DNA from: Chiloscyllium plagiosum
Taxonomy: Eukaryota
Assembly: GCF_004010195.1 (NCBI RefSeq)
Contig: NC_057740.1
Coordinates: 41,422,718-41,474,928, forward strand
DNA length: 52,211 bases
Direction of reading: 5' to 3'
Shown: in pieces, positions 6,108-47,308 of the stretch
Layout: each line of letters opens with the position of its first letter
Position numbering within the stretch: position 1 is the stretch's first letter
Translations under genes and position numbers: made by a program
Notes under the pieces: generated by a model
Databases searched by the model: none
Seen by the model: only the letters and a program-made list of their open reading frames with translations
What the model was told of the DNA's origin: nothing

Positions 6108-6261
6108 AGGTAAAAACAATGACTGCAGATGCTGGAAACCAGATTCTGGATTAGTCGTGCTGGAAGAGCACAGCAGCTCAGGCAGCATCCAAGGACAGGC
6201 AAAATCTGAGGACAGGCAAAATCGACGTTTCGGGCAAAAGCCCTTCATCAGGAATAAAAAA
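6108..6261 (-). mobile_element. Short Penelope-derived insert with intact hammerhead
   Basis: Perfect 15-bp flanking repeat ggtgtaatctctatg (6093-6107, 6262-6276). Confidence 0.8.
6220..6255 (-). ncRNA. Minimal hammerhead ribozyme inside a short Penelope-derived insert, core intact
   Basis: Minus strand reads AUUC-CUGAUGA-A-GGGC(UUUU)GCCC-GAAA-C-GUC-GAUU; stem I is short with one U.U mismatch. Confidence 0.7.
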
Positions 6262-8409
6262 GGTGTAATCTCTATGGCAACCCCTCTATCAGAGTCTCCT
6301 TGCCAAGCAATTAGCACTCTCCTATCATTTAGTATAAATGTTATTTTCTCTTTATTTGGTATTCTTGTGAATTGTCCTGGTGAGTGAGAGATAAAAAGAT
6401 TTGACAACATGTTTTTTATCAGGAATATTCTGTATCGTTCTGTGCCATCAAATAGCCATATTAAGGTATTGATCATACCCATGAAAAACAACAAGTTGAA
6501 ATTCTTCCAAGTTAATCATTCCTAGTCCAAACAGCCTGCTTGTATTTACCACACAGTAATCACTCAGTACTAGCAGGGAAAGAGAGTTGACCTTTCAAAA
6601 CCTCCCCTCCCTTCCTTGTTGGCTTTTTACTAATAACAGTTTGTGTGACATGCGTTGGAAGTAAATTGTGGAAAACTGTTCCTCTCTCCTTTCGGATTTG
6701 GAGGAGGCCAGGCCGCTGCCATTTGATTAAGATCATGTCTGATTTGTGTCTTAACTTTCTCTACTTTAGATCCCAAACCTTTAACAGCTTTTCCTAACAG
6801 ATTCTTTTTCATTCATTCTTTTGATCAGCCATCACTGACGAAGCCAACATTTATTGGCCAGCCCTAACTGAGAAAGTGGGAGAGAACTGCTTCTTGGACC
6901 ATGACATTTGAGGGGTGTAGAGACACACACAATGATGTTAAAGGAAGGAATTCCAGGATTTCGATCCAGCGATACCGAAGGAACAATGATATATTTCCAA
7001 GTCAGATCGGTGAGTGAGTCAGAGGAAAATATTCAGAGTGTTTCCTGAATTTGCTGCCCTCATCCTTCTAGATGGTAGCAGTTTCAGGTTTTGAAGGTGT
7101 TGTCTTTGGTGAGTTGCTGTAGTGCATCTTGTAGTCAGAATACGCTGCTGTAACTGTGCGTCGGTGGTGGAGAGACTGAATGTTGAATGCATTAAATGCG
7201 ATATCAATAATCAGGCTGCTTTGTCTTGGATGATGTCAAGCTTCTCAAGTGTTGTTGGACCTGCACCCATCCAGGCAAGTGGAGAGTATTCCACCACACT
7301 CCTGACTTGAGTCTAGTAGATAGTGGACAGGCTTTGGGGAGTCAGGAGGGGAGTTGCTCACTGCAGGATTCTCAGCCTCTGACCTGCTCTTGTAGCCAGA
7401 AGATTGACATTGGTGATGCCCAGGAAGATGATGAGTTCACCTCTATGGGGAGGTATAGGTGTAGTGATAATACCACCAAGCTTGTAATTCTAATGATACC
7501 AAAACAGAAATTGCTGGAAAATCTCAGCAGCTCTGGCAGCATCCGTGGAGAGAAATCAAGGTCAATTCTCTGAGGAAGGGTCACTGGACCTGAAACATTC
7601 ACTCTGATTTCTCTCCACGGATGCTGCCAGAGCTGCTGAGATTTTCCAGCAATTTCTGTTTTGGTATCATTAGAATTACAAGCTTGGTGGTATTATCACT
7701 ACAGAGTGAATGTTTCAGGTCCAGTGACCCTTCCTCAGAGAATTGACCTTGATTTCTCTCCACAGATGCTGTCAGACCTGCTGAATTTCTCCAACAATTT
7801 ATGTTTTTGTTTCTGATTTACAGCAGCTGCAGTTCTTTTGGAATACTAGTGTGCTGTAATAATATAGGTTTAAATCCCAATTTAGCAGCTGGTGGAATTG
7901 AAATTGAGTTAATCATTCTGGAATAATGACCACATTATTCCAATTGATTGTTGGAAAATCTCATGTGGCTCCTCAATAATCTTTAGGGAAGGAAATCTGC
8001 CGTCCTTACCTGGTCTGGCCGACACATAACTCCAGACACACAGCAATGTGGCTGACTCTTAACCACCCTCAGAAATAGCTGAGCAAGTGCTGCCCTCAAC
8101 AGCAACACCCACACCACATGAAAGATTAAAGGCAAGAGTGCATGGTGCCAGGAACTATGCATGATCCTTGAAAGAGGACTGTGTCCCTGAGGGAGATACC
8201 AGCCAGCTGTGAGATTGAGACCTTACCTAGTATCAGCCCACAGTTAGTGAAAGAGATACACTGACAGAAATGGTATTGCTATAACCCAAAACCTAACCAC
8301 CACTACCTCCCCTGAGGGAATGCAAAACTAAAACAACAAACAGTTTGCAGCAAGGGAATGCAAGCCCAGTTTAAGTAAACTGTCCTCATTATTTAATGCT
8401 TTCAGTCCA

Positions 8410-12152: not shown

Positions 12153-12337
12153 GGAAAACCCAAGAGAACTGCGGGATGCTGAAAATCAGAAACAAAAACA
12201 GAAATTGCTGGAAAAGCTCAGCAGGTCTGGCAGCATCAGTAGTGAGAAATCAGAGTTAATGTTTCAGGTCCAGTGACCCTTCCTCAGAACAGGGCTGCCA
12301 GATCTGCTGAGCTTTTCCAGCAATTTCTGTTTTTACA
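12153..12337. mobile_element. Fold-back Penelope-derived insert, second subfamily (CUGAGGA-AGGGUC-ACUG-GACCU-GAAA)
   Basis: Flanked by tcagctgaaatga (12140-12152, 12338-12350); stem I GUU/AAC on minus; inverted arms. Confidence 0.75.
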
Positions 12338-15309: not shown

Positions 15310-17900
15310 AAAAAAATATTTTCTCATAATGTGGGTGTTGCTGGCTGCCACAAAATTTATTGCCCATTCCCAATAACCATTGAGAAGGTGATAGTGAGCT
15401 GCCTTCTTGAACCACTGCAGTCCATGTGTTACAGACAGATCCTCAATGCCGGTACAGAGGGAAATCCAGATTTTGACCCAGTGATACTGAAGAAACAGCA
15501 ATATATTTCCAGGTCAAGATGGTGAGTTTCCTGGAGGGAGTGGTGTACCTATACAGCTGCTGCCCTTGTCCTTCTAGATGGAAGTGGTCCTGGGTTTGGA
15601 AGGTGCTGTCTAACGAGCTTTGGTGAATTTATGCAGTGCATCATGTAGATAGTACATGCTGCTGCTACTGAGTGTCAGTGGTTGAGGGAGTGGATGCTGT
15701 GGGTTATGGTGCCAATCAAGCTGCTGCTCTCTTAGATGATGTTGAGCTTCTTGAGTTGGAGCTACATCCATTCGGGGAGGGTTCTATCACACTCCTGACT
15801 TGTTCTGTGTAGATGAATCACTTGCTGCAGGATCCCTGTCTCTGACCTGCTTTTGGAGTCTCAATATTCATATGTCTGGTCCAACTCAGATTCTGACAAT
15901 GGTAACCCTTGGTTCCTTGATGCCACACTCAGTCAAACGCAGCCTTGATGCCAAGGGCTGTCACTTTCCCTTCCTCTCTGGAATTCAGCTCATTTGTCCA
16001 TGTTTGAACCAAGGCTGTCATGAGGTCAAGAGCTGAGTGGCCCTGACGGAACCCAAACTGGGCGTCACTGAGCAGGTTATTGTGAGCAGGTGCTGCTTGA
16101 ACGCACAGTTGATGACACCTTCCATCACGTTACTGATGATCAAGAGTAGACTATGGGGCAGTAACTGGCCGGATTGGAATTGTTCTGCTTTTTGTGTGCA
16201 GGACATACCTGGGCAATTTTCCCGCCATTGTCAGGTGGATGGCAGTGTCACAACTACATTGGAACAGCTTGGCGGTAGCTGGGATAATTCTGGAGCATGC
16301 CTTCATGTTGTCAGGACACATAGCCTTTGCAGTATCTAATGTTTTCTGCCATTTGTTGTAATCACATGGAGTGGATCAAATTAGCTGAAGACTGGTATCT
16401 GTGATGCTGGGGGCCACGGGAGAAGGCTGAGATGGAGTATCGACTCAGCATTTCTTGCGGAAGATTGTTGCGAATACTTTGCTCTTGTCTTTTACACTGA
16501 TATGTCAGGCACTTCCATCATTGAGGATGAGAATATGCATGAAGGCTGTTCTTTCAGGCAGATGTGTGAATGTCCACCACTCGTCATGATAGGAGATGGT
16601 AGGGCTGCAGAGCTCAGAGCATATCTGTTGACCATGGGATTGCTAATCCTCATCTATTGCAAGTTACTTATGCTGATTGGCACACAGTATTCCTGTGTTG
16701 TTACTTTACCAGCTGTCCCTGCATTTTTAGGAATGCCTGGTGCTGCTCCACCCTTCCCCTCTCCTTTGGACCAGGGCTAATCCTTAGCTTGAAAGAAGGT
16801 AGAATGGGGGATATGCCAGGCATGAGGTTGCATTTTATGGTTGAATTCGATCATACAGACTGAGGTTGATGGCCCACAGTCTTGTATCAAGTTGTAAGAG
16901 CATGAAAGGGTTAAATCAGAGGACTGTGCTATAATTGGGTGCCACACAATAGTATGAGACCTCCTGCAATGTAGGTCTTCCTCTCTCAAATGATGTCTTT
17001 CATATTAATGAAGCTTATACCTCGCTGCCCTCATGTTATAAACTACACTGTGTTTAATATAGCTTTAGATCACCTGATGGTTTTCCTCTGCCACACTAGA
17101 CCAAATGGGCCTTGTAGATGGGCCTTGGGTGGCTCAGTGGTTAGCACTGCTGCCTCACAGCGCCAGAGACCCGGGTTCAATCCCCGCCTCAGGCAACTGT
17201 CTATGTGGAGTTTATACATTCTCCCCGTGTCTGCATGGGTTTCCTCCCACAGTCCAAAGATGTGCAGGTTAGATGAATTGGCCATGCTAAATTGCCCGTA
17301 GCGTTAGGTGAAGGGGTAAATGTAGGGGAATGGGTGTGGGTGGGTTGCTCTTCAGAGGGTCGGTGTGGAATTGTTGGGCCGAAGGACCTGTTTCCACATT
17401 GTAGGGATTCTAAACTGGAACCAGACTACGAAACAGCATGGATTCCACCAGATGGATCTTACATCAAGGTGATGAGGACATCTCTCACAGCGCACAGTGC
17501 CTCCTGGATGCCCAGTCTTCAGTTAGTACATCTATTAGCACAGCAATAGTGTCACACAACACAATGAGGGGTATTCTCAATGTGAAGATGCGACTTTGCC
17601 TTTACAAGGACTTTACGGTGGTCACTCTTACTAACAATGTCAGGGTGAGGTACATGCATCACTGGCAGATTGGTGAGGATGAGGTCAAGTATATTTTTCC
17701 CTCTTATTGGTTCCCTCACCACCTGCGGCAGACCCAGTCCAGTTGTGATGTCCTTTCAGATCTGACCCTGCTTATTCAACAGTGCTGCTGCTGCTGAACT
17801 GTTCTTGGTGGATATTGAAATTCCCCACCCAATGTTTGTCATGCAGCCTCGTCAACCTCAGTGCTTCCTTCCGGTGATGTTCAACATGGAGGAGTACTGA
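15310..17900 (-). mobile_element. Old non-LTR retrotransposon (second CR1-like family), fragmented
   Basis: Minus-strand SLLLIISNVMEGVIN...Q.GF RT-like peptide; tail aagaaggcagctcac...ttctcaa...gggcaataaa is shared with fragments at 6845-7400, 18700-18850 and 19790-19905. Confidence 0.6.
17128..17412 (+). mobile_element. HE1-like V-SINE
   Basis: A-box tggctcagtgg, B-box ggttcaatcc, V-domain, CR1-like tail. Confidence 0.85.
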
Positions 17901-18850: not shown

Positions 18851-19176
18851 TTAGATTAGATTAGATTAGATTAGATTACGTTACAGTGTGGAAACAGGCC
18901 CTTCGGCCCAACAAGTCCACACCGACCCGCCAAAATGCAACCCACCCATACCCCTACATTTACCCCTTACCTAACACTACAGGCAATTTAGTATGGCCAA
19001 TTCACCTGAGCTGCACATCTTTGGACTGTGGGAGGAAACTGGAGCACCCGGAGGAAACCCACGCAGACACGGGGAGAATGTGCAAACTCCACACAGTCAG
19101 TCGCTTGAGTCGGGAATTGAACCCAGGTCTCTGGCGCTGCGAGGCAGCAGTGCTAACCACTGGGCCACCGTGCCAC
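18851..19176 (-). mobile_element. HE1-like V-SINE, full length
   Basis: tRNA-like head, V-domain, (TTAGA)n tail on plus strand. Confidence 0.88.
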
Positions 19177-20151
19177 TGTGGAATGAGTAAAGGGAAATGA
19201 GACAAGCTGAGTTTGTCCAGCCTTTCCTCATTAGACAGCACCCCCATTCCAGGTATCAGTCTCTGAACTGCGTCCAACACATTTACATCCATTCTAAAAT
19301 AAACAGACCAATACTGTGCACAATTCATGCACCACATGAACCCCATTCCATCTACTGTTTCCCAAAGATGTACAATATATAATTCGGTTCACCAGACTTC
19401 GGGAGAGAAGCTTTTATATTTCTGAAATTCTCATTATTAATCTCCTCCTGTACCTATACTTCATCAACACCATAAAAACATCTGACTGAAATTCTTCATG
19501 TTAATCATTCCCAGATCAGAACTGCCTGCTTACATTTACCTTGTGGTAATCACTCATCTCCATCTCCTGCACTGACAGGGAGAGAGATTTGACCTTTCAA
19601 AGCCTCCCCACCCTTTTTAGTAATTTTTCACAATATCTTTGTTTGACATACGCCAGGAAAACACCCTGGGAAATGGTGTGACTCTTTCTTTTCGACCTGC
19701 TGTGCTGTTTCCCTTAAATAGCCAATCAAAATTGAACAAGAACCAAACACTAAACTTGCTCACAGTAATACAACCCACACAAACTGCATCATAGACTGCA
19801 GCGGTTCAAGAAGGCAACCCCTCCCCCCACGTTCTCAAGGGGCAACTAGGGACGGGCAATAAATGCTGTGCCCAGTCATTGACATCCACATCCTGTCAAT
19901 GAATGTGAAAAGGAGATCAGAGTTACCATTCAGCCCACTTCACTAATCAACTGGGTCACGATTAAACAGCTGCCATAAATCCATTCTCCCATTTGCCTTG
20001 GTATTGTTAATTTGTTTCATTCATTCACAGAGAGAGGAGTGTATTGACACAGAGAGGGAGAGAGAGGGAGAGTGCTCAGAGATAGGAGGCTATAGAGGGA
20101 GAAAGGAGGGTATTTTGAGAAAGTGAGGACGGTATTGAGAGAGGAGGGTAA

Positions 20152-20775
20152 AACATGTCCAGAAACCCTAGCTCAGCAACGTGGTAGCCCACAAACCCAC
20201 CAACATACTAAAACTGCAGCTAATGAACTTGAAAGACCCTATACAGACAATGAGCAAAACTAATGTAATTTACAAAATACCGTGCCAGAACTGTTACAAA
20301 CACTACATTGGACAAACAGGCAGAAAACTAGCCACCAGGATACATGAACATCAACTAGCCACAAAATGGCATGACCCTCTCTCACTAGTATCCTCACATA
20401 CGGATGAGAAAGGGCACCACTTTGACTGGGACAACACATCCATCCCAGGACAAGCCAAACAGAGACATGCACGAGAATTCCTAGAAGCATAACATTCCAA
20501 CCAGAACTCAATCAACAAACACATTGAGTTAGACCCCATCTATCACCCCCTGAGAAAAACAGGATATGACATCACCACAGGAAATGACAACACCAACCCA
20601 AAGAAACCCAAACATATAAATAGAAAACAGGAATCTTGTGCAGTGCTTCGCCGGAGGCCCACTGAAGATGTTACCTAGTAGGTGACGAAACGTCTGGAAA
20701 TGAACCTTCCAGCTCAGCGATCAAACCCACATCCAAAACCTCAACCTGAGCTACAAATCTTCTCAAAACTCGCTA
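20152..20775 (+). mobile_element. Penelope-like element 3' fragment: GIY-YIG endonuclease plus 3' terminal repeat region
   Basis: ORF 20181-20492 contains NVIYKIPCQNCYKHYIGQTGRKLATRIHEH, the PLE-type GIY-YIG motif with CxxC. An in-frame stop follows, then a hammerhead motif. Confidence 0.9.
20659..20697 (+). ncRNA. Minimal type I hammerhead ribozyme (Penelope-associated), core intact
   Basis: CCA-CUGAAGA-U-GUUACC(UAGUA)GGUGAC-GAAA-C-GUC-UGG: stem I CCA/UGG, 6-bp stem II, palindromic ACGU as stem III, GUC cleavage triplet at 20692-20694. Confidence 0.8.
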
Positions 20776-22331
20776 AGACAGGAGGGTATTGAGAGAGAGA
20801 GAGAGGGGGGAGGGTATTGAGAGAGTGCTTAGAAAGAGGAGGGTATGGGGGGGGGGGATGGTATTGAGAGCGCGAGGAGAGGAGGGTGCTCCAAGAGAGG
20901 ACAGTATTGAGAGAGAGGTGGAGGGCATTCAAGTGGGCCAGGCCTGACTATCGGCTGGGGAACGGAGCATACAGCAGCTTATTTTGATCTAGTTAACTGT
21001 ATTTCCTGCTCAAAACAGTCACAGCATAAAACCCACTATATTCCACCTCCTTTCAGTTCCCAAGATCATTTCAGACTCAAAACATTAATCCTATTTCTCT
21101 CTCCACACCTGCTGAGTTTCTCTAGCAGTCTGTTTTATTTCAGATTTCCAGCATCTGCAGTCTTTTATTTCTATAAGGATTCACAGGAGAAATTTCAGTA
21201 AAGGAGAAGCAATCAGGTCAGCTGAGACCCCAGGGTACAACGTGGCAGATAATCTGCAAATAGCTTATCTGGTTAGGCCACAGCTAGGGTACTGTGTGGT
21301 TCTGGAAACCCATTATGGAGCAATATGATTCTGTCAGAGAGGAATTTACCAGGATGTTGCCTGGTCTGGAGAGTTTCAGAGATGAAGGGAGATTGGACAG
21401 CCTAGGGATGTTTTCCTTGGAGCAGAGGAGGTTGAGAAGAGACATGATTGAGATGGATAAAATGATGGCAGAGATAGGGTAGATAGGAAGAACCATTTTC
21501 TCCTTGATAGAGGGATCAATGACCAACGGGCATGGATTTAAGATAAGGGGCAGGAGAGCTAGAGGAAAACTGTTTCCACCAAGAGGCTGGTAGGGATGTG
21601 GAACTCACTGCCGGTAACCTTGAAGAAATATTTCATTGTGCACTTGTGATGCAAAAATAATTTCTTGAAAATCAGTATTAATGTTGCATCATTTTTCAGA
21701 CGATATGTATTTAACTATTTATTTCGATGAATGTAGAAAGTGAGAGTGTATGGAATGTTTATTTACGATAAATTAACAAAAACATATTACCTACAGATTC
21801 ATGATTAAACTGTTTCACTTTATATTGTGCATGTGATCTTCATTATTTGCTGTTTTGACTATCTGAAGAAAATAAACTCCTAAAAATAAACTCAGCAAAT
21901 GCACACAAATTATTCCTGTGTGACTGCGTCACCTGAAAAAGGAATTAGTGAGAATGGAAACACAGCCGCCTGAAAGCCAAAAAGTAAAAATACATAAATC
22001 AATTTGATCACCACGTCTTGGAGCAGAGAATTCCAAAGATTAAGCACCTTGTCAATTATTTTAAATCTATACCCTCTGGCTTGTGAGAAGAGTTTTCCAA
22101 TTGCTCTCTCAAACACCTCAGTATTTTAGCTAATCTCTATGTTAGGACATCCATGAACCTTTTCTGCTCTTAGTATAAAGAAATCTTGAGTCATAAACAC
22201 AAGCAAAGAGCATCCTCAAATCTTCTAAATAACCTGCTTAGTCTATGCAACTTTTTCTCATAAATTCACTCTTCCTAGCCCACTATCTATCCATGCAGCA
22301 GTTTATATCCTGTGAGGTATGCTGTCCAGAA

Positions 22332-23036
22332 ATCATAGAATCCCTACAGGGTGGAACAGGTCATTTGGCCCAACAAGTCCACACTGACCTTCCATTTGCC
22401 TACCCTATTACTCTCCATTTCCCCTGACCAATACACCTAACCTACACACCCCTGAACACTTTAGCATAGTCAATTCACCAAACCGGCATATCTTTGGACT
22501 ATGGGAGCAAACCCACACAGACATTTGCCAGAGGCTGGATTTGAACCCGGGTCCCTGATGATGTGAGGCAGCGGTGCTAACCACTGAGCCACGTGCCATT
22601 TGGAGTGTTCTCAAGGAATCAAGAGTTCTCCCCCTCACCTCAGCTAACCCCAATAGCTTCACTTTGACAGAAAACTGACCTGACCTCAGTCAGGAGATGT
22701 CACACTACACTTCTGTTTGAGTGGCAGCACAGTGACTCAGTGGTTAGCAGTGCTGCCTCACAACACCAGGAACCCAGGTTTGATTACAGCCTCGGGCAAC
22801 TGTGCAGAGTTTGCACATTCTCCCCGTGTCTGTAGGTGTGCTCCGGTCTCATCCCACAGACCAAAGGTGTGCAGGTCAGGTGAATTGGCTATGCTAAACC
22901 GTCCATAGTGATGGGTGCATTAGTCAGGGGTAAATACAGGCTAGAGGAATGGGTCTAGGTGGGTTACTTGCCAGAGGGCCGGTGTGGACTGGTTGAGCCG
23001 AAGGGCCCGTTTCTGTCCTGTAAGGAATCTAATCTA
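22332..23036. mobile_element. Two divergently oriented V-SINEs (22332-22598 minus; 22722-23036 plus)
   Basis: Heads, V-domains and tails visible in both. Confidence 0.8.
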
Positions 23037-23705
23037 GTGAAGGAGAGTGTGTGATAGCAAGGCCAATGGCACCACCTAGCTGCAGTTCAATGCCTAACAC
23101 CCTCAGATCAATTGACTGAAGGTTGTAGGTTCAAGTCCCCCCATCAGGTAAGGCTGGCAAGTTCCTCTCCCTAAAGGACAGCAGGGAACGAGATGGGACC
23201 ATTTAGAGCATTTGACAGCTGCTACACGATCATCGTTATGCTACATTTTTATTCTGAGGTTCCACAAAATTCAAATTTCACCAATAACTGCTGGCTGCCG
23301 ACATCACGTGAACAAATTAAAAACCTTCAGGTCTGCTCCATTTGTCACATACATCATAACTGGTCATCACCCCGAAGACATTCTCCCACATACCCCTCAA
23401 TCTTGGTCATTTATTGGATTCATTCTCAGGATGTTACTGGCTGGGCCAGTCTCTAATTATCCAGTCAAAAGCCAACCACATTGTTGAGTGTGGAGTTACA
23501 TGTAGGTCAGACCAAGTAAGGATGTCAGATTTCCCTCCCTGAAAGACATTAATGAACGAGACAAGCTTTTATGACACTTAATCTAATGGTGACCATGAAA
23601 ACATTACTATGTTGTTATACCAGATCTTGAATTCAGTTTAAATTTGACCAGTTGCTATGGTAGGATTCTAACCCATGTTCTCAGGCCTGGGGTTCTGGTT
23701 TACTA

Positions 23706-24226
23706 GGAGGAGAAAGTGAGGTCTGCAGATGCTGGAGATCAGAGCTGAAAATGTGTTGCTGGAAAAGCGCAGCAGGTCAGGCAGCATCCAGGGAACAGGA
23801 GAATCGACATTTCGGGCATAAGCTCTTCTTCAGGAATGAGGAAAGTTTGTCCAGCAGGCTAAGATAAAAGGTAGGGAGGAGGGACTTGGGGGAGGGGCGT
23901 CGGAAATGTGATAGGTGGAAAGAGGTCAAGGTGAGGGTGATAGGTCAGACTGGGGTGGGGGCGGAGAGGTCGGGAAGAAGCTTGCAGGTTAGGAAGGCGG
24001 TGCTGAATTCTTGCTACTTGCGGAGCGTTTCAGAGAACACCTCTGGGACACCGGGACCGACCAACCTAACCACCCCGTGGCTCAACATTTCAACTCCCCC
24101 TCCCACTCTGCCAAGGATATGCAGGTCTTTGGACTCCTCCATCGCCAGACCACAACAAAACGACGGTTGGAGGAAGAGCGCCTCATCTTCCGCCTAGGAA
24201 CCCTCCAACCACAAGGGATGAACTCG
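23706..24226. mobile_element. Penelope-like element with inverted 5' part (3' end on minus, GIY-YIG C-terminus on plus)
   Basis: 24011-24225 translates LAERFREH...PVAQHFNSPSHS..DMQVFGL...RRLEEERLIFRLGTLQPQGMN. 23706-24009 is the reverse complement of the 3' terminal segment, with a decayed hammerhead near 23805-23836. Confidence 0.8.
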
Positions 24227-25293
24227 GAACTGGCCCAGAGGGTGGCGGATGCTGTATTACTGAATGTATTCACAGCTGGGATAGACAGGTTTTTGTTTTC
24301 ATGGAGTGCATTAGAAAGTGGTGAGCTACTATGATTATACGGAATGGTACAGCAGGGCTGATGGGCTGAATGTTCTACTCTTGCTGCTTGTGTGCGTAGG
24401 ATGATTCCACAGCCAGAAATGTGCTTCATAGAGCCATTAAGGGAAAATGTGGCACTCCAACAGTGCTGCACTTGTAGATCACACACACATCCTGTATGGG
24501 TCCTTGCGGATACAGGCATAGAATCATTGAATTTTACAGTCCAGGAGGCCATTTAGCCCATCATGTCCGTACCAGCTCCAGATAGACTTTTCCAGCTGGT
24601 CCCACTCTCCAGTCCAATCTCCATAGCCCTCTAACTTCATCCCTTCCAAATATATATCATTTTTGAGACCTCTTATGGAATCCTCCTCCACCACTCTCCC
24701 AGGCAGTGCATTCCAAATCCTAACAACTCTGAGTAAAGAAGTTTCTCCTCATCGCACTCCTAGCTCTCTTACTGACAACCCCGAAATTGTGACCCCTAGT
24801 TACTGACATATCAAATAGTGTAAACAGATTATCCTCCTTTACCCTGTGGAAGTTGTTCATAATTTTGAACATCTCAATAAGGTCACCTCTTAATTATCTG
24901 ACATGGGGCTAACCTGCTCCCTCTCTGAGCAATAGCGGAGATGTGAAACTGATAACTATTAGTGGAATTGTCCTGTGTACCAATTACTGCTGCATTCCCT
25001 CCAGTAATCACGGCACTTGGCTCCTGCACTGGCAGGTCATTTGGGACAAGTTGATGTTGTGAAAGATGCTACAGAAATGCCAGACCATTTCCTTATCTCA
25101 TTTAAAAAAGTTTAAATTTGTTAACAGTTTAGAATGATAATTTCAATGAGTAAAAAAAAATCTGTTTAGAACATTGCAGCGGTGACCTTTCTCCAACTGC
25201 CAGCTGCCTGCACATTGAAGGTCAGGGTTGCCTGGATCAGACGTCAGAGGATGACTGCTCCTCAGCCTATGGGCCATCAGGGACTCTGAGCAG

Positions 25294-31091: not shown

Positions 31092-32023
31092 NNNNNNNNN
31101 NNNNNNNNNNNNNNNNNNNNNNNNNNNNNNNNNNNNNNNNNNNNNNNNNNNNNNNNNNNNNNNNNNNNNNNNNNNNNNNNNNNNNNNNNNNNNNNNNNNN
31201 NNNNNNNNNNNNNNNNNNNNNNNNNNNNNNNNNNNNNNNNNNNNNNNNNNNNNNNNNNNNNNNNNNNNNNNNNNNNNNNNNNNNNNNNNNNNNNNNNNNN
31301 NNNNNNNNNNNNNNNNNNNNNNNNNNNNNNNNNNNNNNNNNNNNNNNNNNNNNNNNNNNNNNNNNNNNNNNNNNNNNNNNNNNNNNNNNNNNNNNNNNNN
31401 NNNNNNNNNNNNNNNNNNNNNNNNNNNNNNNNNNNNNNNNNNNNNNNNNNNNNNNNNNNNNNNNNNNNNNNNNNNNNNNNNNNNNNNNNNNNNNNNNNNN
31501 NNNNNNNNNNNNNNNNNNNNNNNNNNNNNNNNNNNNNNNNNNNNNNNNNNNNNNNNNNNNNNNNNNNNNNNNNNNNNNNNNNNNNNNNNNNNNNNNNNNN
31601 NNNNNNNNNNNNNNNNNNNNNNNNNNNNNNNNNNNNNNNNNNNNNNNNNNNNNNNNNNNNNNNNNNNNNNNNNNNNNNNNNNNNNNNNNNNNNNNNNNNN
31701 NNNNNNNNNNNNNNNNNNNNNNNNNNNNNNNNNNNNNNNNNNNNNNNNNNNNNNNNNNNNNNNNNNNNNNNNNNNNNNNNNNNNNNNNNNNNNNNNNNNN
31801 NNNNNNNNNNNNNNNNNNNNNNNNNNNNNNNNNNNNNNNNNNNNNNNNNNNNNNNNNNNNNNNNNNNNNNNNNNNNNNNNNNNNNNNNNNNNNNNNNNNN
31901 NNNNNNNNNNNNNNNNNNNNNNNNNNNNNNNNNNNNNNNNNNNNNNNNNNNNNNNNNNNNNNNNNNNNNNNNNNNNNNNNNNNNNNNNNNNNNNNNNNNN
32001 NNNNNNNNNNNNNNNNNNNNNNN
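31092..32023. other. Assembly gap
   Basis: Run of N. Confidence 1.
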
Positions 32024-33094: not shown

Positions 33095-34620
33095 GAGTTA
33101 CAGAGGTGTTCGGCACAGAAACAGACCCTTCGGTCCAACTCGTCCATGCCAACCAGATATCCTAAACTAATCTAGTCCTATCTGCCAGCATCCAGCCCAT
33201 ATCTCTCCAAATCCTTCCAATTCATATACCCATCCAGATACGATTTGAATGCTGCAATTATACCAGCCTCCACCACTTCCTCTGGCAGCTCATTCCATAC
33301 ACGTACCACCCTCTGTGTGAAAACATTGCCCCTTAGGTCTCTTTTATATCTTTCCTCTCACCCTAAACCTACGCCCTTTAGTCTGGTCTCCCCGATCCCA
33401 GGGAAATGACTTTGTCTATTTATCCTATCCATGCCCCTCATGATTTTATAAACCTCTATAAGGTCACTCCTCAGCCTCCGACACTCCAGGGAAAACAGCC
33501 CCAGCTTGTTCAGCCTCTCCCCGTAGCTCAAATCCTCCAACCTTGGCAGCATCCTTGGAAATCATTTCTGAACCCTTTCAAGTTTCACATCTTTCCGATA
33601 GGAAGGAGACCAGAATTGCACTCAATACTCGAAAAGTGGCCTAACCAACATCATGTACAATCGCAACATGACCTCCCAACTCCTGTACTCAATAGTCTGA
33701 CCAATAAAGGAAAGTATAACCCACGCCTCCTTTACTATCCAATCTACCTGCGACTCTACTTTCAAGGAGCTATGAATCTGCACTCCAAGGTCTCTTTGTT
33801 CAGCAACACTCCCTAGGACCTTACCATTAAGTGTATGAGTCCTGCTAAGATTTGCTTTCCCCAAATGCAACACCCCACATTTATTTAAATTAAACTCCAT
33901 CTGCCCATTGGCTTATCTGATCAAGATCCTGTTGTAATTTGTCCACTACACCTCCAATTTTAGTGCCATCTGCAAACTTACTAACTATACCTCTTATGTT
34001 CACATCCAAATCATTTATATAAAATGATGAAAAGTAGTGGACCCAGCACCGATCCTTGTGGCACTCCACTAGTCACAGGCATCCAGTCTGAAAAACAACC
34101 CTCTACCACCACCCTCTGTCTTCTACCTTTGAGCCAATTCTGTATCCAAATGGCTAGTTCTCCCTGTATTCCGTGAGATCTAACCTTGCTAATCAGTCTC
34201 CCATGGGGAACTTTGTCAAACATCTTACTGAAGTCTATATAGATCACGTCCACTGTTCTGTCCTCATCAATCCTCTTTGTTACTTCTTCAAAAACTCAAT
34301 CAAGTTTGTGAGACATGATTTCCCACTCACAAAGCCATGTTGACTATCCCTAATCAGTCCTTGCCTTTACAAATACATGTACATCCTGTCCCTCAGGATT
34401 CCCTCCAACAACTTGCCCACCACTGACGTCAGGCTCACTGGTCTATAGTTCCCTGGTTTGTCCTTACCACCTTTCTTAAACAGTGTCACCATGTCAGTCA
34501 ACCTCCAGTCTTCCAGCACCTCACCTGTGACTATCGACGATACAAGTATCTCAGCAAGGGTCCAGCAATAACTTCCCTAGCTCCTCACAGAGTTCTAGGG
34601 TACACCTGATTAGGTCCTTA
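33095..34620 (-). mobile_element. CR1/HER1-like LINE RT region to 3' tail (MPV17L2 intron)
   Basis: DVIYIDFSKMFDKVPHGRL...[16 protein letters not shown] and MEFNLNKCGVLHLG; frameshifted. Confidence 0.92.
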
Positions 34621-39628: not shown

Positions 39629-40273
39629 GGTGGAGGTACCGGTTTTGGACTGGGATGGTCAAAATTAACAATCACACAACACCGGGTTATAGTCCAACTG
39701 GTTTATTTGGAAGTACCAACTTTCTGAGCGCTGCTCCTTCATCAGGGAGCTAGTAAAATAGGATCACAGGACACAGAATTTATAGAAAAAGATCATAGTA
39801 TCATAAACTGATGCAATATATTGAACAAACCTAGATTGCTGTTAAGTGGCAGTCAATATTTTTTATAAGCCATATGACATTTTACAAACTCATACTTTGT
39901 AAAGAGAATCAGTCTGACTCAAGATTGGAACACATATGGACTCTAACTGCACACTTTTAATACATTGTTGGAGCTGAGATGTCACTTTTTTTAAACAAAC
40001 CTTAAGTTATCTGGGGAATGTGACTTGAAAGTAGTTCTGGGATTTACATATTAATGAACCGCAACCTAAAACCCATTCTTACGGATGAATGATTGAACAG
40101 CAATCAAGATTTGTGTAATATATTGCATCAGTGTCTGACACGATGATCTTTTGCTATAAATTCTGTGTCCTACGATCCTGCTCTGCGAGCGACCTGACAA
40201 TGGAGCAGCAGTCCGAAAGCTTATACTGCTAAGTAGACCTGTTGGACAGTAACCTGGTGTTGTATGATTTTAA
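39629..40273. mobile_element. Penelope-derived element with long inverted arms, third hammerhead subfamily, in MPV17L2 intron
   Basis: Arms about 39668-39845 and 40094-40272, each with CUGA.(G/A)A..GGAGC-AGC-..CC-GAAAG; flanked by gtgatacagtga (39617-39628, 40274-40285). A shorter relative is at about 29165-29325. Confidence 0.7.
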
Positions 40274-42455: not shown

Positions 42456-43883
42456 CGTTCTACCGTCAATGTCCTGTTTTACTTAGATTAATATTCAATT
42501 AGAATAGGAGGGGTTACCCTGTAATAATCTTTTAAAGTCACAGGCACCTCCTGGAATAAGTTATTGAAAAGTTATATTTTACTGATTGATTACTGACTGC
42601 TTTTTGTTCGAGAAGAATGTAATCAATCCCTAGGGTCAGTCATGATCTGACTGATTGGCAGAACAGGCTCGAGGGGCCGAACAGGGCTTTTGCCCAAAAT
42701 GTCGATTTTCCTGCTCCTCGGATGCTGCCTGACCTGCTGTGCTTTTCCAGCATCACTCTAATCTAGACTCTGGTTTCCAGGATCTGCAGTCCTCACTTAT
42801 GCCTCGAGAGAGCGAACAGCCTACTCCCACTCCTGTTTCTTCTGGCTTTATGGGATACTGTAGCAGAGGGGATTTAGAGGAGATAGCTGGAGCATACAAC
42901 CATGGAACTGTGTGGAAGGAAGCCATTCAGTCAATTGTGCCTATACTGGCTCATTAAAGAGCATCATTACCTCGTGCCAATCATCTGCCTTTCCCCCGGA
43001 CCCTTGCATCTTATTTTTATCCAAATAACCATCCAATGCCCTCATGAATACCTCCATTGAACCTGCTTCTGCCACATTTCCAGGCAATGCCTTCCACATT
43101 TCATTCTGATGAAGAGTCACTGGACTGAAAAAGTTTAGCTCTGCTTTCTTCCTACAGATGCTGCCGGAAGTGCAGAGTTTCCCCAGACATTCCTGTTTCA
43201 TAGCTCAAATAGAACCATCAGCGTAACACTTGTAGGAAAGGAAAGATTAGCCTTCATTGTCCCAGGTACTTGAATGAATGCAGTGAAAAATTCGTAATAT
43301 CGCCTCTCCGTGCCACCTCAGGTACAATGGTACCTAGGTACAGATACTTTATGTCTTGTCACAGAGTTGAAATAGTCAAAAGAAAGGCTTGCATGGGAAT
43401 ACAGAGTATAAAAGTCCAGAATATGATTAAAGAGTGTCTGTAAAGTACTCAATTTATAATCTTTCAGAACATGAGGCTAAGCTGCCTCCATCCGGACTCA
43501 CTCTGGGCTCCAGCCCAAGACTCGGCCCACTCTCATCCTGCTCCCCACTCCCGGACTCAGCTGGGGTGGGGAGAAAAACTGCAGCAAAGAGGGGAAACAA
43601 AAGCGAAAAGGAATTGGCAAGCAGAGGAGCTCCGACTGGAGCATCTTAATGTGCCGCCATCTTGAACAGTTAGAATCTGCCATATCTGCCTGGTCTGGCC
43701 TACATGGAAAACTACAGGTCACTGTTGAAAAATAAAGGGACTGCCCATTTAAGGTGAGGAACTCTTATAAAGGATTGTGGCTAAAGAGAATTTAAAATCA
43801 TTTACATCCCTAACCAGGTGCACCGACTTCTTTCCACAGTCCAAAGATGTTTAGGTTAGGTGGATTGGCCATGGGAAATACAG

Positions 43884-44599: not shown

Positions 44600-46440
44600 A
44601 ACCACAGCTGCCCGGTCAGACAAACAGACCTAGGACATTCGGCCTCTCGACATTAATCTGCCACTCATTAAGGTCATAGCTGATCTTCCACATTCCCATC
44701 CACTGCCAATAACCTCATTCCTTGCCTATCCAGAATCTATCTACCTCTGCTTCAGCAACACTGAATGGCCCGAGCTCCACTGTGTTCTAAGACAGAGAGT
44801 TCCAAAGTCATACAACCCATCTGAGAGAAAAAATATCTTTCTCATCTCTGTCCGAAAAGGATGACCTGAACTTTTAAATAGATCTGGACAGACCCACATG
44901 AGGAAAAGTCATTTCCACATCCACCTTGCAAGGCCATTCAGGATCTTACACACTCTAATCAAGTCTAAGTCTAACCCTAACCCTAACCCTAACCCTTATT
45001 CTCATAAACCTCAGTGGAAACAAGCCTGGTCAGTCCAAGCTTGCCTCGTAAGACAACAGATTCATTCCAGGTATCAATCAAGTAAATCTCCTCTGAACCA
45101 CCAACAATGTATTTACACATCGCCTTATTGCAGGAGGCCAGAACTGCACACAGTATTTGAGATGCGTGTCACCAATATCGTGTATAACTGAAGCCTAACC
45201 TTCTCTATTGTACGTTCAATTCCTTTCATGAGAAATTAGAGTATTCTTCTCGAGTACTTGCTGTGCCTATATTCTATATCATTGTCACCCCTGCACTAGA
45301 ACACCCAGAGCCCTCTGCCTCTTGAAATTCTCTGTTTAAGTAATACTCTTTAAAACGTTCTTCCTGCCCAAGGTAAACAACTTTGCATTTTCCCACTACT
45401 GGCATTTTTTTTATCCATTCCCACAACCTACCTATATTTGTCTGCAGCATTCTTATGCCTTCTTCCCCACATACTTTCCTACTTATCTTGGTGTTGTCTA
45501 TGCTTTTAGCCTCCATGCCTTCACTCCCCACATTGATATAAATCGTAAGAAGTAGCTGCCCCAACACAGAAGCCTGTGCGATTTCATTTGTCACACCCTG
45601 CCAATGAGAAACAGACCTCTGAATTCCAGCAGCTAGCCAACTTTCAATCGATGTTAATATGTTACCCTTTACACCATGAGCTTAAACTTTGCACAATTAG
45701 ATTATATGTGGAACCTTGTCAAATGCCTTCTGGTAATGCGAATCAGTACATCGAAAGGTTACCCTTTATCCACAACGCATGTTACACCATCAAAGAATTC
45801 CAACAGACTCTAATAAATGCATTCATTTCATTCACACATCTCATTCCTGATGAAGGGCTTTTGCCTGAAACATCGATCTTCCTGCTCCTCGGATGCTGCC
45901 TGACCTGTTGTGCTTTTCCAGCACCATTTTAATCTTGACTCTAATCTCCAGCATCTGCAGTACTCACTTTCACCTAGTCTAATAAATGCATGTTGGCTCA
46001 GTGGTTAGCACTGCTATCTCAAAGCACCACTGATCCGTGTTCAATTCCAGCCTCCGGTGATTGTCTGCGTGGAGTTTGCACATTCTCCCTGTGTCTGTGT
46101 GGGTTGCTCTGGTTTCCTCCCCCAGTCCCAAGATGTGTAGGTTAGATGAATTGGTCTTGCTAAATCATAGTGAGTGAGTGTGTAATGGGATGATACTTTT
46201 GGAAGGTCAGTGCAGACCCAATGGGCCAAATGGCCTCTCCCTGCACTGTAGGGATTCTAAATTGGTGAAACATGACTTCCCTTCAACAAAACCATGCTTA
46301 CTCTTCCCAAATACTGTGTGTTTATCCAAGTGCTCAGCTATAACCTCTTTAATGATTAATTCTAACACCATCCCCATGACAGGTGTCAGGCTAATGAACC
46401 TATTCTTTCTTTTCATCTGCCTGCCTCCCTTCTTGAATAG
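44600..46440 (-). mobile_element. Old CR1 LINE remnant with nested inserts
   Basis: SVLGQLLLTIYIN and SKHGFVEGKSCFTNL peptides on minus. Confidence 0.72.
45823..45977 (+). mobile_element. Short Penelope-derived insert with near-intact hammerhead (CpG-decayed stem III)
   Basis: Flanked by tctaataaatgcat (45809-45822, 45978-45991); CUGAUGA-A-GGGC-UUUU-GCCU-GAAA-CAUC. Confidence 0.78.
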
Positions 46441-46808: not shown

Positions 46809-47308
46809 NNNNNNNNNNNNNNNNNNNNNNNNNNNNNNNNNNNNNNNNNNNNNNNNNNNNNNNNNNNNNNNNNNNNNNNNNNNNNNNNNNNNNNNNNNNN
46901 NNNNNNNNNNNNNNNNNNNNNNNNNNNNNNNNNNNNNNNNNNNNNNNNNNNNNNNNNNNNNNNNNNNNNNNNNNNNNNNNNNNNNNNNNNNNNNNNNNNN
47001 NNNNNNNNNNNNNNNNNNNNNNNNNNNNNNNNNNNNNNNNNNNNNNNNNNNNNNNNNNNNNNNNNNNNNNNNNNNNNNNNNNNNNNNNNNNNNNNNNNNN
47101 NNNNNNNNNNNNNNNNNNNNNNNNNNNNNNNNNNNNNNNNNNNNNNNNNNNNNNNNNNNNNNNNNNNNNNNNNNNNNNNNNNNNNNNNNNNNNNNNNNNN
47201 NNNNNNNNNNNNNNNNNNNNNNNNNNNNNNNNNNNNNNNNNNNNNNNNNNNNNNNNNNNNNNNNNNNNNNNNNNNNNNNNNNNNNNNNNNNNNNNNNNNN
47301 NNNNNNNN
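46809..47308. other. Assembly gap (500 N)
   Basis: Run of N following a (TG)n tract. Confidence 1.

Follow-up and report, generated by a model that had tools for sequence, protein, structure and literature searches.

The window, a 52,211-nucleotide stretch of the Chiloscyllium plagiosum genome (contig NC_057740.1), contains on its plus strand a solo, 5'-truncated copy of a Penelope/Poseidon-type element, here called family A, the limits of which (20150..20779) were set by alignment with other copies. The copy is about 631 bp long, and the best of the other copies are 89-91% identical to it, with 40 scored of 9,124 first-look candidates. It begins with a piece of the linker between reverse transcriptase (RT) and endonuclease (20150..20172), which in other copies has its match 65 nt ahead of the following block, and passes through a 9-nt filler (20173..20181) at a 65-bp internal deletion into the C-terminal remnant of the open reading frame (ORF; 20182..20678), consisting of the linker end, a GIY-YIG endonuclease that carries VIYKIPC..C..YIGQT, and a C-terminal tail. 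Position 20182 is also where family reads depart from the window sequence. The GIY-YIG frame of 106 aa (20172-20489, plus strand) ends at a TAA (20490-92); it matches Pfam PF01541 with E=0.009, below the curated cut-off, and its nearest named proteins are those of carpet sharks (84-87% identity). In the family majority this TAA is a Trp codon. A preliminary description of the locus had placed a hammerhead motif (20659-20697) some 170 nt downstream of the ORF; since the TAA is a decayed Trp codon, the motif in fact overlaps the ORF end.

Compared with the family majority the copy has 34 differences in 594 bases (5.7%), the average for 29 others being 6.3%, and its decay is marked by the premature stop, the 65-bp deletion and a deletion in loop II of the hammerhead. 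At the 3' end lies an optional tail of about 40 nt (20736..20779, plus strand), separating the two sites at which family copies preferentially have their 3' end. The element is flanked on the plus strand by AGGAGGGT, at 20142..20149 and 20780..20787, a possible 8-bp target-site duplication that is unproven, since this word recurs in the GA-rich repeat around the element. No second family copy that could serve as a dimer partner was found in the window or in 10 kb on each side of it. The locus itself matters little, as one among thousands of decayed ends.

Other repeats are scattered through the window. Several copies of a SINE-like repeat, which we take to be of the shark HE1 type, lie at 18950-19180, 17080-17300 and 22450-22900, and assembly gaps of N occupy 31092-32023 and 46809-47308. 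A Pfam scan of the 139 window frames of 78 aa or more returned only two sub-threshold matches and one RT fragment, on the minus strand (34014-34295, RVT_1, E=5e-11), which is likely a LINE remnant. Short hammerhead-bearing repeats with three other stem II types occur at 2760-2900, 6228-6251, 7511-7738, 12209-12319, 13247, 39721-39745, 43106-43130 and 45847-45870, several of them in palindromes and most with a stem I of 0-2 bp; our reading of these cores agrees with the earlier description of the present motif as a fourth stem II sequence in the window. A fold-back remnant of a Penelope-like element (PLE) at 23700-24334 combines a minus-strand hammerhead core (23810-23833) with a plus-strand endonuclease C-terminus, Neptune-like when compared by eye with the supplement of PMC8557442. 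The earlier proposal that the motif at 20659-20697 is tied directly to an endonuclease-coding element is borne out, although the tie is not unique, as the core at 23810-23833 also adjoins such an element.

The hammerhead motif and its conservation

The motif at 20659-20697 (plus strand) is a minimal type I hammerhead, and all the parts that had been claimed for it were found at their positions. Stem I has 3 bp, formed by CCA (20659-61) and UGG (20695-97). As read from the sequence, the core box CUGAAGA (20662-68) is followed by an extra U after A9 (20669), by stem II (20670-75 with 20681-86, including one G-U pair, or in an alternative reading 7 bp with a 3-nt loop), by the GAAA box (20687-90) and by CGUC (20691-94), with C17 at 20694 and the predicted cut after it. 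The core boxes CUGANGA, GAAA and UH are all present, helix III is absent, and a palindromic ACGU occupies 20690-93. Two of these features, the extra base and the self-complementary ACGU replacing stem III, had been noted as if they were oddities; according to the published description both are hallmarks of PLE hammerheads (Cervera and de la Pena, 2014; PMC4209133). The motif agrees with that description of the minimal hammerhead ribozyme (min-HHR), having a base between 9 and 10.1, a G10.1-C11.1 pair, a long helix II and a palindromic 15.2-16.2.

A strict hammerhead descriptor matched once in the window and not at all in 300 shuffles, a result that speaks against chance as the origin of the motif, and a loose core pattern gave 20 matches vs 6.7 expected. 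No hammerhead family was returned by an Rfam scan of the window at E<=1 or E<=10; weak miRNA-type matches, all on palindromic repeats and far below gathering scores, were rejected. An extended helix I (20644..20721, plus strand), with a distal GAGG/CCUU segment beyond an internal loop, is predicted as a possible addition, the fold constrained to contain it lying 5.7 kcal/mol above the minimum-energy fold.

Conservation of the core by the family, which the preliminary description had left to be established, was confirmed, as all hammerhead core bases are kept by the family majority. The third pair of stem I is C-G in 43/52 copies of family A, U-A in 23/28 copies of a subfamily and G-C in 26/29 copies of the sister family B, in counts that were anchored on the core, the U-A subfamily having been fetched with a U-A query. 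The third pair of stem II, counted in the same way, is U-A (30/52) or U-G (19/52) in family A and C-G in 27/29 copies of family B; in 26/29 family B copies, stem II also contains an A-G mismatch. This covariation represents about three events in related lineages. An alignment-based covariation test gave a weak result: 92% of cells were paired, 14 of 500 shuffles reached the score, and gaps placed by the aligner removed the stem I pair of family A that carries the most information. At the palindrome position CG is found in 23/52 family A copies, with most of the others showing CpG-type changes. Among distant relatives from metagenome contigs (31-48% identity), a sense-strand motif was present at 9 of the 73 loci with enough flank, as opposed to none in antisense at the same 73 loci and none in 20 shuffles; the extra base occurs in all nine, as U in four and A in five. 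Taken from these comparisons of sequence, the hammerhead fold is probably real at the level of the family. The sister family (L107-L136) is of Poseidon type and shares about 70% identity with family A over the endonuclease; its copies are less diverged and mostly have U17, and a protein query, which picks up other families as well, gave 96,076 first-look candidates for it.

Family A and the reading frames that meet in the motif

The assignment of the element as Penelope-like stands, since the family layout, the RT and the GIY-YIG endonuclease all fit. Homologues match RVT_1, and the family has a single ORF of RT plus C-terminal GIY-YIG, of which the window copy retains the endonuclease end only. 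The question raised earlier of Poseidon versus Neptune can be answered in favour of Penelope/Poseidon by diagnostic features. A CX2-5CXXC linker is described as marking Neptune and Nematis (PMC8557442); the 73-aa linker of the family majority lacks it, as do 5/5 homologues checked, and Neptune was rejected because of the missing linker zinc finger. The linker and endonuclease also resemble, by eye, the PoseidonFr rows in the supplement of that study (PMC8557442), and family A is filed under Penelope/Poseidon on both grounds.

Family A is present in high copy number. First-look candidates for it numbered 9,124 with a 3' probe, 4,483 with a middle probe and 1,140 with a 5' probe, the probes differing in length, and a fall towards the 5' end is expected from 5' truncation. 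A 35-nt core motif was found in 280 exact copies, compared with 0 for the control. A direct, pseudo-LTR partial copy of the 3' end running into the body was seen in 16 of 30 long loci, most of which also have an inverted arm; the partial tandem, the inverted arm and an optional tail of 30-40 nt are traits of endonuclease-bearing (EN+) PLEs, and the window copy keeps only the tail from this layout. The 3' ends of copies fall at two places, with 41/105 at 20730-45 and 57/105 at 20765-78 (in 19 of the latter the end is the last base of the query, some of these copies continuing beyond it), while the 5' ends are scattered. None of the 105 copies ends within 12 nt of the predicted cut site, and insertion ends defined by the cut were accordingly rejected. 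Loose read ends at 20735, 20768-72 and 20776 were seen in an RNA run.

Several individual loci show variations of the layout. Same-strand family 3' ends lie about 2.2 kb apart at locus L067 (191-367 and 2390-2566), a displaced 3' end is present at L068 (2709-2886), and at L244 (1196-1928) two 3' ends stand in direct tandem with near-identical motifs 298 bp apart, a dimer-type arrangement with an inverted arm too and with substitutions in both cores. Endonuclease pieces also occur in shark gene models named after host genes (P0007, P0016, P0017, P0024, P0025), where they are either exonised repeats or annotation artefacts.

Two reading frames overlap the motif. The natural stop of the family is a TAG in loop II (20676-78, plus strand); the upstream frame stops in loop II in 17 of the 27 copies that could be parsed out of 30, in the core UGA in six and elsewhere in four. 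The bases A9-U-G10.1 (20668..20670, plus strand) form the AUG with which, in tandem copies, the ORF of the following unit begins. From this AUG, a frame in the majority of 30 long copies runs to DKG (272), YVDD (515) and the endonuclease (707), with one internal stop and slips near the thinly covered end. One sister-family copy has a frame of 69 aa from the equivalent AUG, with no other Met and 48% identity to family A, this being the one locus of 29 that reaches the upstream motif; six other pattern matches were spurious. Of 56 core-intact copies, 54 have a loop II of 6 nt; the window copy has one of 5 nt, and this loss of one base cuts the downstream frame after five codons. In tandem units the predicted cut falls 25 nt after the hammerhead AUG, the stop of the upstream unit lies 6 nt after the AUG in another frame, and a second Met of family A stands just after the cut. 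No intact natural ORF was found among the family copies searched, and seven long 'open' frames in the sister family proved to be assembly gaps of N.

Origin of the copy and competing explanations

The locus is very probably occupied by a solo, 5'-truncated and mutated Penelope/Poseidon end, with a pseudo-LTR ribozyme that was likely functional ancestrally and is likely inactive here. In full-length tandem copies the motif lies at the junction between units, where the sequence shows directly that the upstream endonuclease frame stops inside the motif and the downstream ORF takes its AUG from A9-U-G10.1. Target-primed reverse transcription is the likely origin of the copy; it would have begun some 112 nt inside the next ORF and broken off after about 700 nt, internal initiation being suggested by the two fixed 3' ends and by PAc, the Poseidon element of Anolis carolinensis (Frangieh et al., 2024; PMC11167929). 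In an active element, cleavage may have been weak and dependent on help from the element's own protein and/or from a second motif paired through ACGU, as PAc and the min-HHRs would suggest (PMC11167929; PMC4209133), and it is unlikely to have determined where the inserted DNA ends.

A further, rather unlikely reading gives the vertebrate Poseidon hammerhead the role of a self-limiting translation switch, in which the start codon takes its U from the conserved extra base, the protein encoded by the element binds the RNA and switches the ribozyme on, and the cut removes the AUG together with nine codons. It is concerned with the family and not with this dead copy. If true, the upstream stop near the AUG would couple translation across tandem units, and the PLE hammerhead would gain a regulatory job instead of end-processing. 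Several observations tell against such a switch: the extra base is A, giving no AUG, in five of the nine distant motifs, and the other four open only 8-31 codons; family A has the second Met just after the cut; and the RNA-seq described for PAc has no ends at the cut site (PMC11167929).

It is improbable that the motif is kept mainly as coding sequence and start-codon context, with no ribozyme role even in active elements. A stop codon and the opening 9-10 codons do overlap the motif, the near-constant 6-nt loop fits a constraint on frame, PAc ribozyme mutants are reported still to insert in vitro (PMC11167929), and Naiad elements are described as thriving without the motif (PMC8557442). The CUGANGA box, however, precedes the AUG, with N7 as its sole position of difference between lineages, and the stem I compensations preserve the pair although the amino acid encoded changes (Glu, Lys, Gln). 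In PAc, moreover, C3G or G8C abolished cleavage, and the double mutant partly restored it (PMC11167929).

The preliminary description had regarded the motif as the best candidate in the window for an active ribozyme, and as fully paired. Full pairing is predicted for the bare 39-nt core, where stem I has a pair probability of 0.48-0.55, but not for contexts of 86 and 121 nt, where the probability is 0.0 and the hammerhead fold is 5.7-6.4 kcal/mol less stable than the best one. Pairing through ACGU contributes a mere -1.7 kcal/mol, and a pair of cores is predicted to favour a stem II duplex instead. Core boxes are kept in 56 of 109 copies that were not picked for their core, and 12 of the 109 are as fully intact as the window copy (a count of 20/125 took in loci picked for an exact core). 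Losses are concentrated at CpG sites, the pattern expected of neutral decay. Because the copy is solo, decays at the usual rate, is no more intact than those 12 copies and is predicted to fold otherwise in its context, it is not a notable candidate, and the ranking given to it earlier was not upheld. The accompanying idea that a dimer would be needed fares better, given that motifs of this kind are reported as inactive when single and weak as multimers (PMC4209133).

From the folding energies and from what is reported for other elements, the hammerhead of the window copy is judged likely to be inactive at this locus. That the copy is a working ribozyme, cutting a read-through transcript of the host either as a monomer or in trans with another family transcript, is correspondingly a highly improbable reading. 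The intact core, stem I, stem II and palindrome speak for it, as do the 627 family reads (85% identity or more) in the RNA run, so that trans partners could exist; seven of these reads are 99% or more alike to the window copy. Against it stand the folding predictions, the number of equally intact copies and the average decay given above, the reported inactivity of single motifs, and the eight of nine Xenopus dimers without cleavage (bioRxiv 10.64898/2026.07.22.740005). No pile-up of read starts or ends was seen among the 627 reads, which come from a poly(A) single-cell library, possibly of a different species and poorly suited to cleavage ends.

Hardly any credence can be given to the window copy as a non-autonomous tandem retrozyme monomer spreading via circular RNA cut at the hammerhead: an origin of animal retrozymes from PLE pseudo-LTRs has been proposed (bioRxiv 10.64898/2026.07.22.740005) and L244 holds its two motifs in direct orientation, but the window copy is single, contains endonuclease coding sequence and ends at the tail, no family end coincides with the cut site, the 5' ends are scattered, and a non-LTR retrozyme array was rejected as its non-coding tandem repeats with hammerheads were not encountered.

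Comparison with known systems

The interpretation of the locus as a solo, decayed Penelope/Poseidon end agrees with what is known of PLE hammerheads, the function of which has been called unclear (PMC8557442). In the literature collection searched, no description of hammerheads in shark PLEs was found, although the supplements of PMC4209133 and bioRxiv 10.64898/2026.07.22.740005 may list some, and the main text of PMC4209133 has no mention of sharks or of a start codon. The min-HHRs of metazoan PLE pseudo-LTRs are of type I with a long helix II and a short helix I, as here, and the base between 9 and 10.1, the G10.1-C11.1 pair, the palindromic 15.2-16.2 and the missing helix III are likewise shared. 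They are described as mostly solo copies with some opposite-strand pairs, a likeness to family A, while the proximal helix I has 3 bp here vs 4-5 bp in Schistosoma (PMC4209133). Family A has in common with the Penelope/Poseidon EN+ PLEs the C-terminal GIY-YIG with CCHH residues, the linker without CX2-5CXXC, the partial tandem, the inverted arm and the tail (PMC8557442).

Animal non-LTR retrozymes also have a type I hammerhead from PLE pseudo-LTRs, and have been reported in one cartilaginous fish; among Xenopus dimers 1/9 cleaved. They are non-coding tandem arrays, whereas the window copy is a single fragment with endonuclease coding sequence (bioRxiv 10.64898/2026.07.22.740005). Viral hammerheads have been described as promoting translation from codons downstream of the cut, which is the opposite geometry (PMC13725137).

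The closest counterpart is PAc, an element that was expressed and biochemically tested, whereas the window copy is a dead fragment; the comparison is made by the published description (PMC11167929). PAc cleaved only when its protein was added, its insertion did not need cleavage, and no RNA-seq ends at the cut site were reported. A stop codon inside the motif is a feature of family A for which the text available on PAc has no report. In both, the ORF starts at stem II, with the cut 26 nt downstream of the ORF start in PAc vs 25 nt after the AUG in family A. Copying of PAc starts 111-118 nt into the ORF and its tail lies between two start sites, a design also seen in family A (PMC11167929). The natural compensatory variants from three lineages could be used as controls for the function of Penelope hammerheads. 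Family A extends to a shark genome the layout demonstrated biochemically for PAc, in which the start codon lies in the ribozyme and copying begins about 70 and 112 nt into the ORF.
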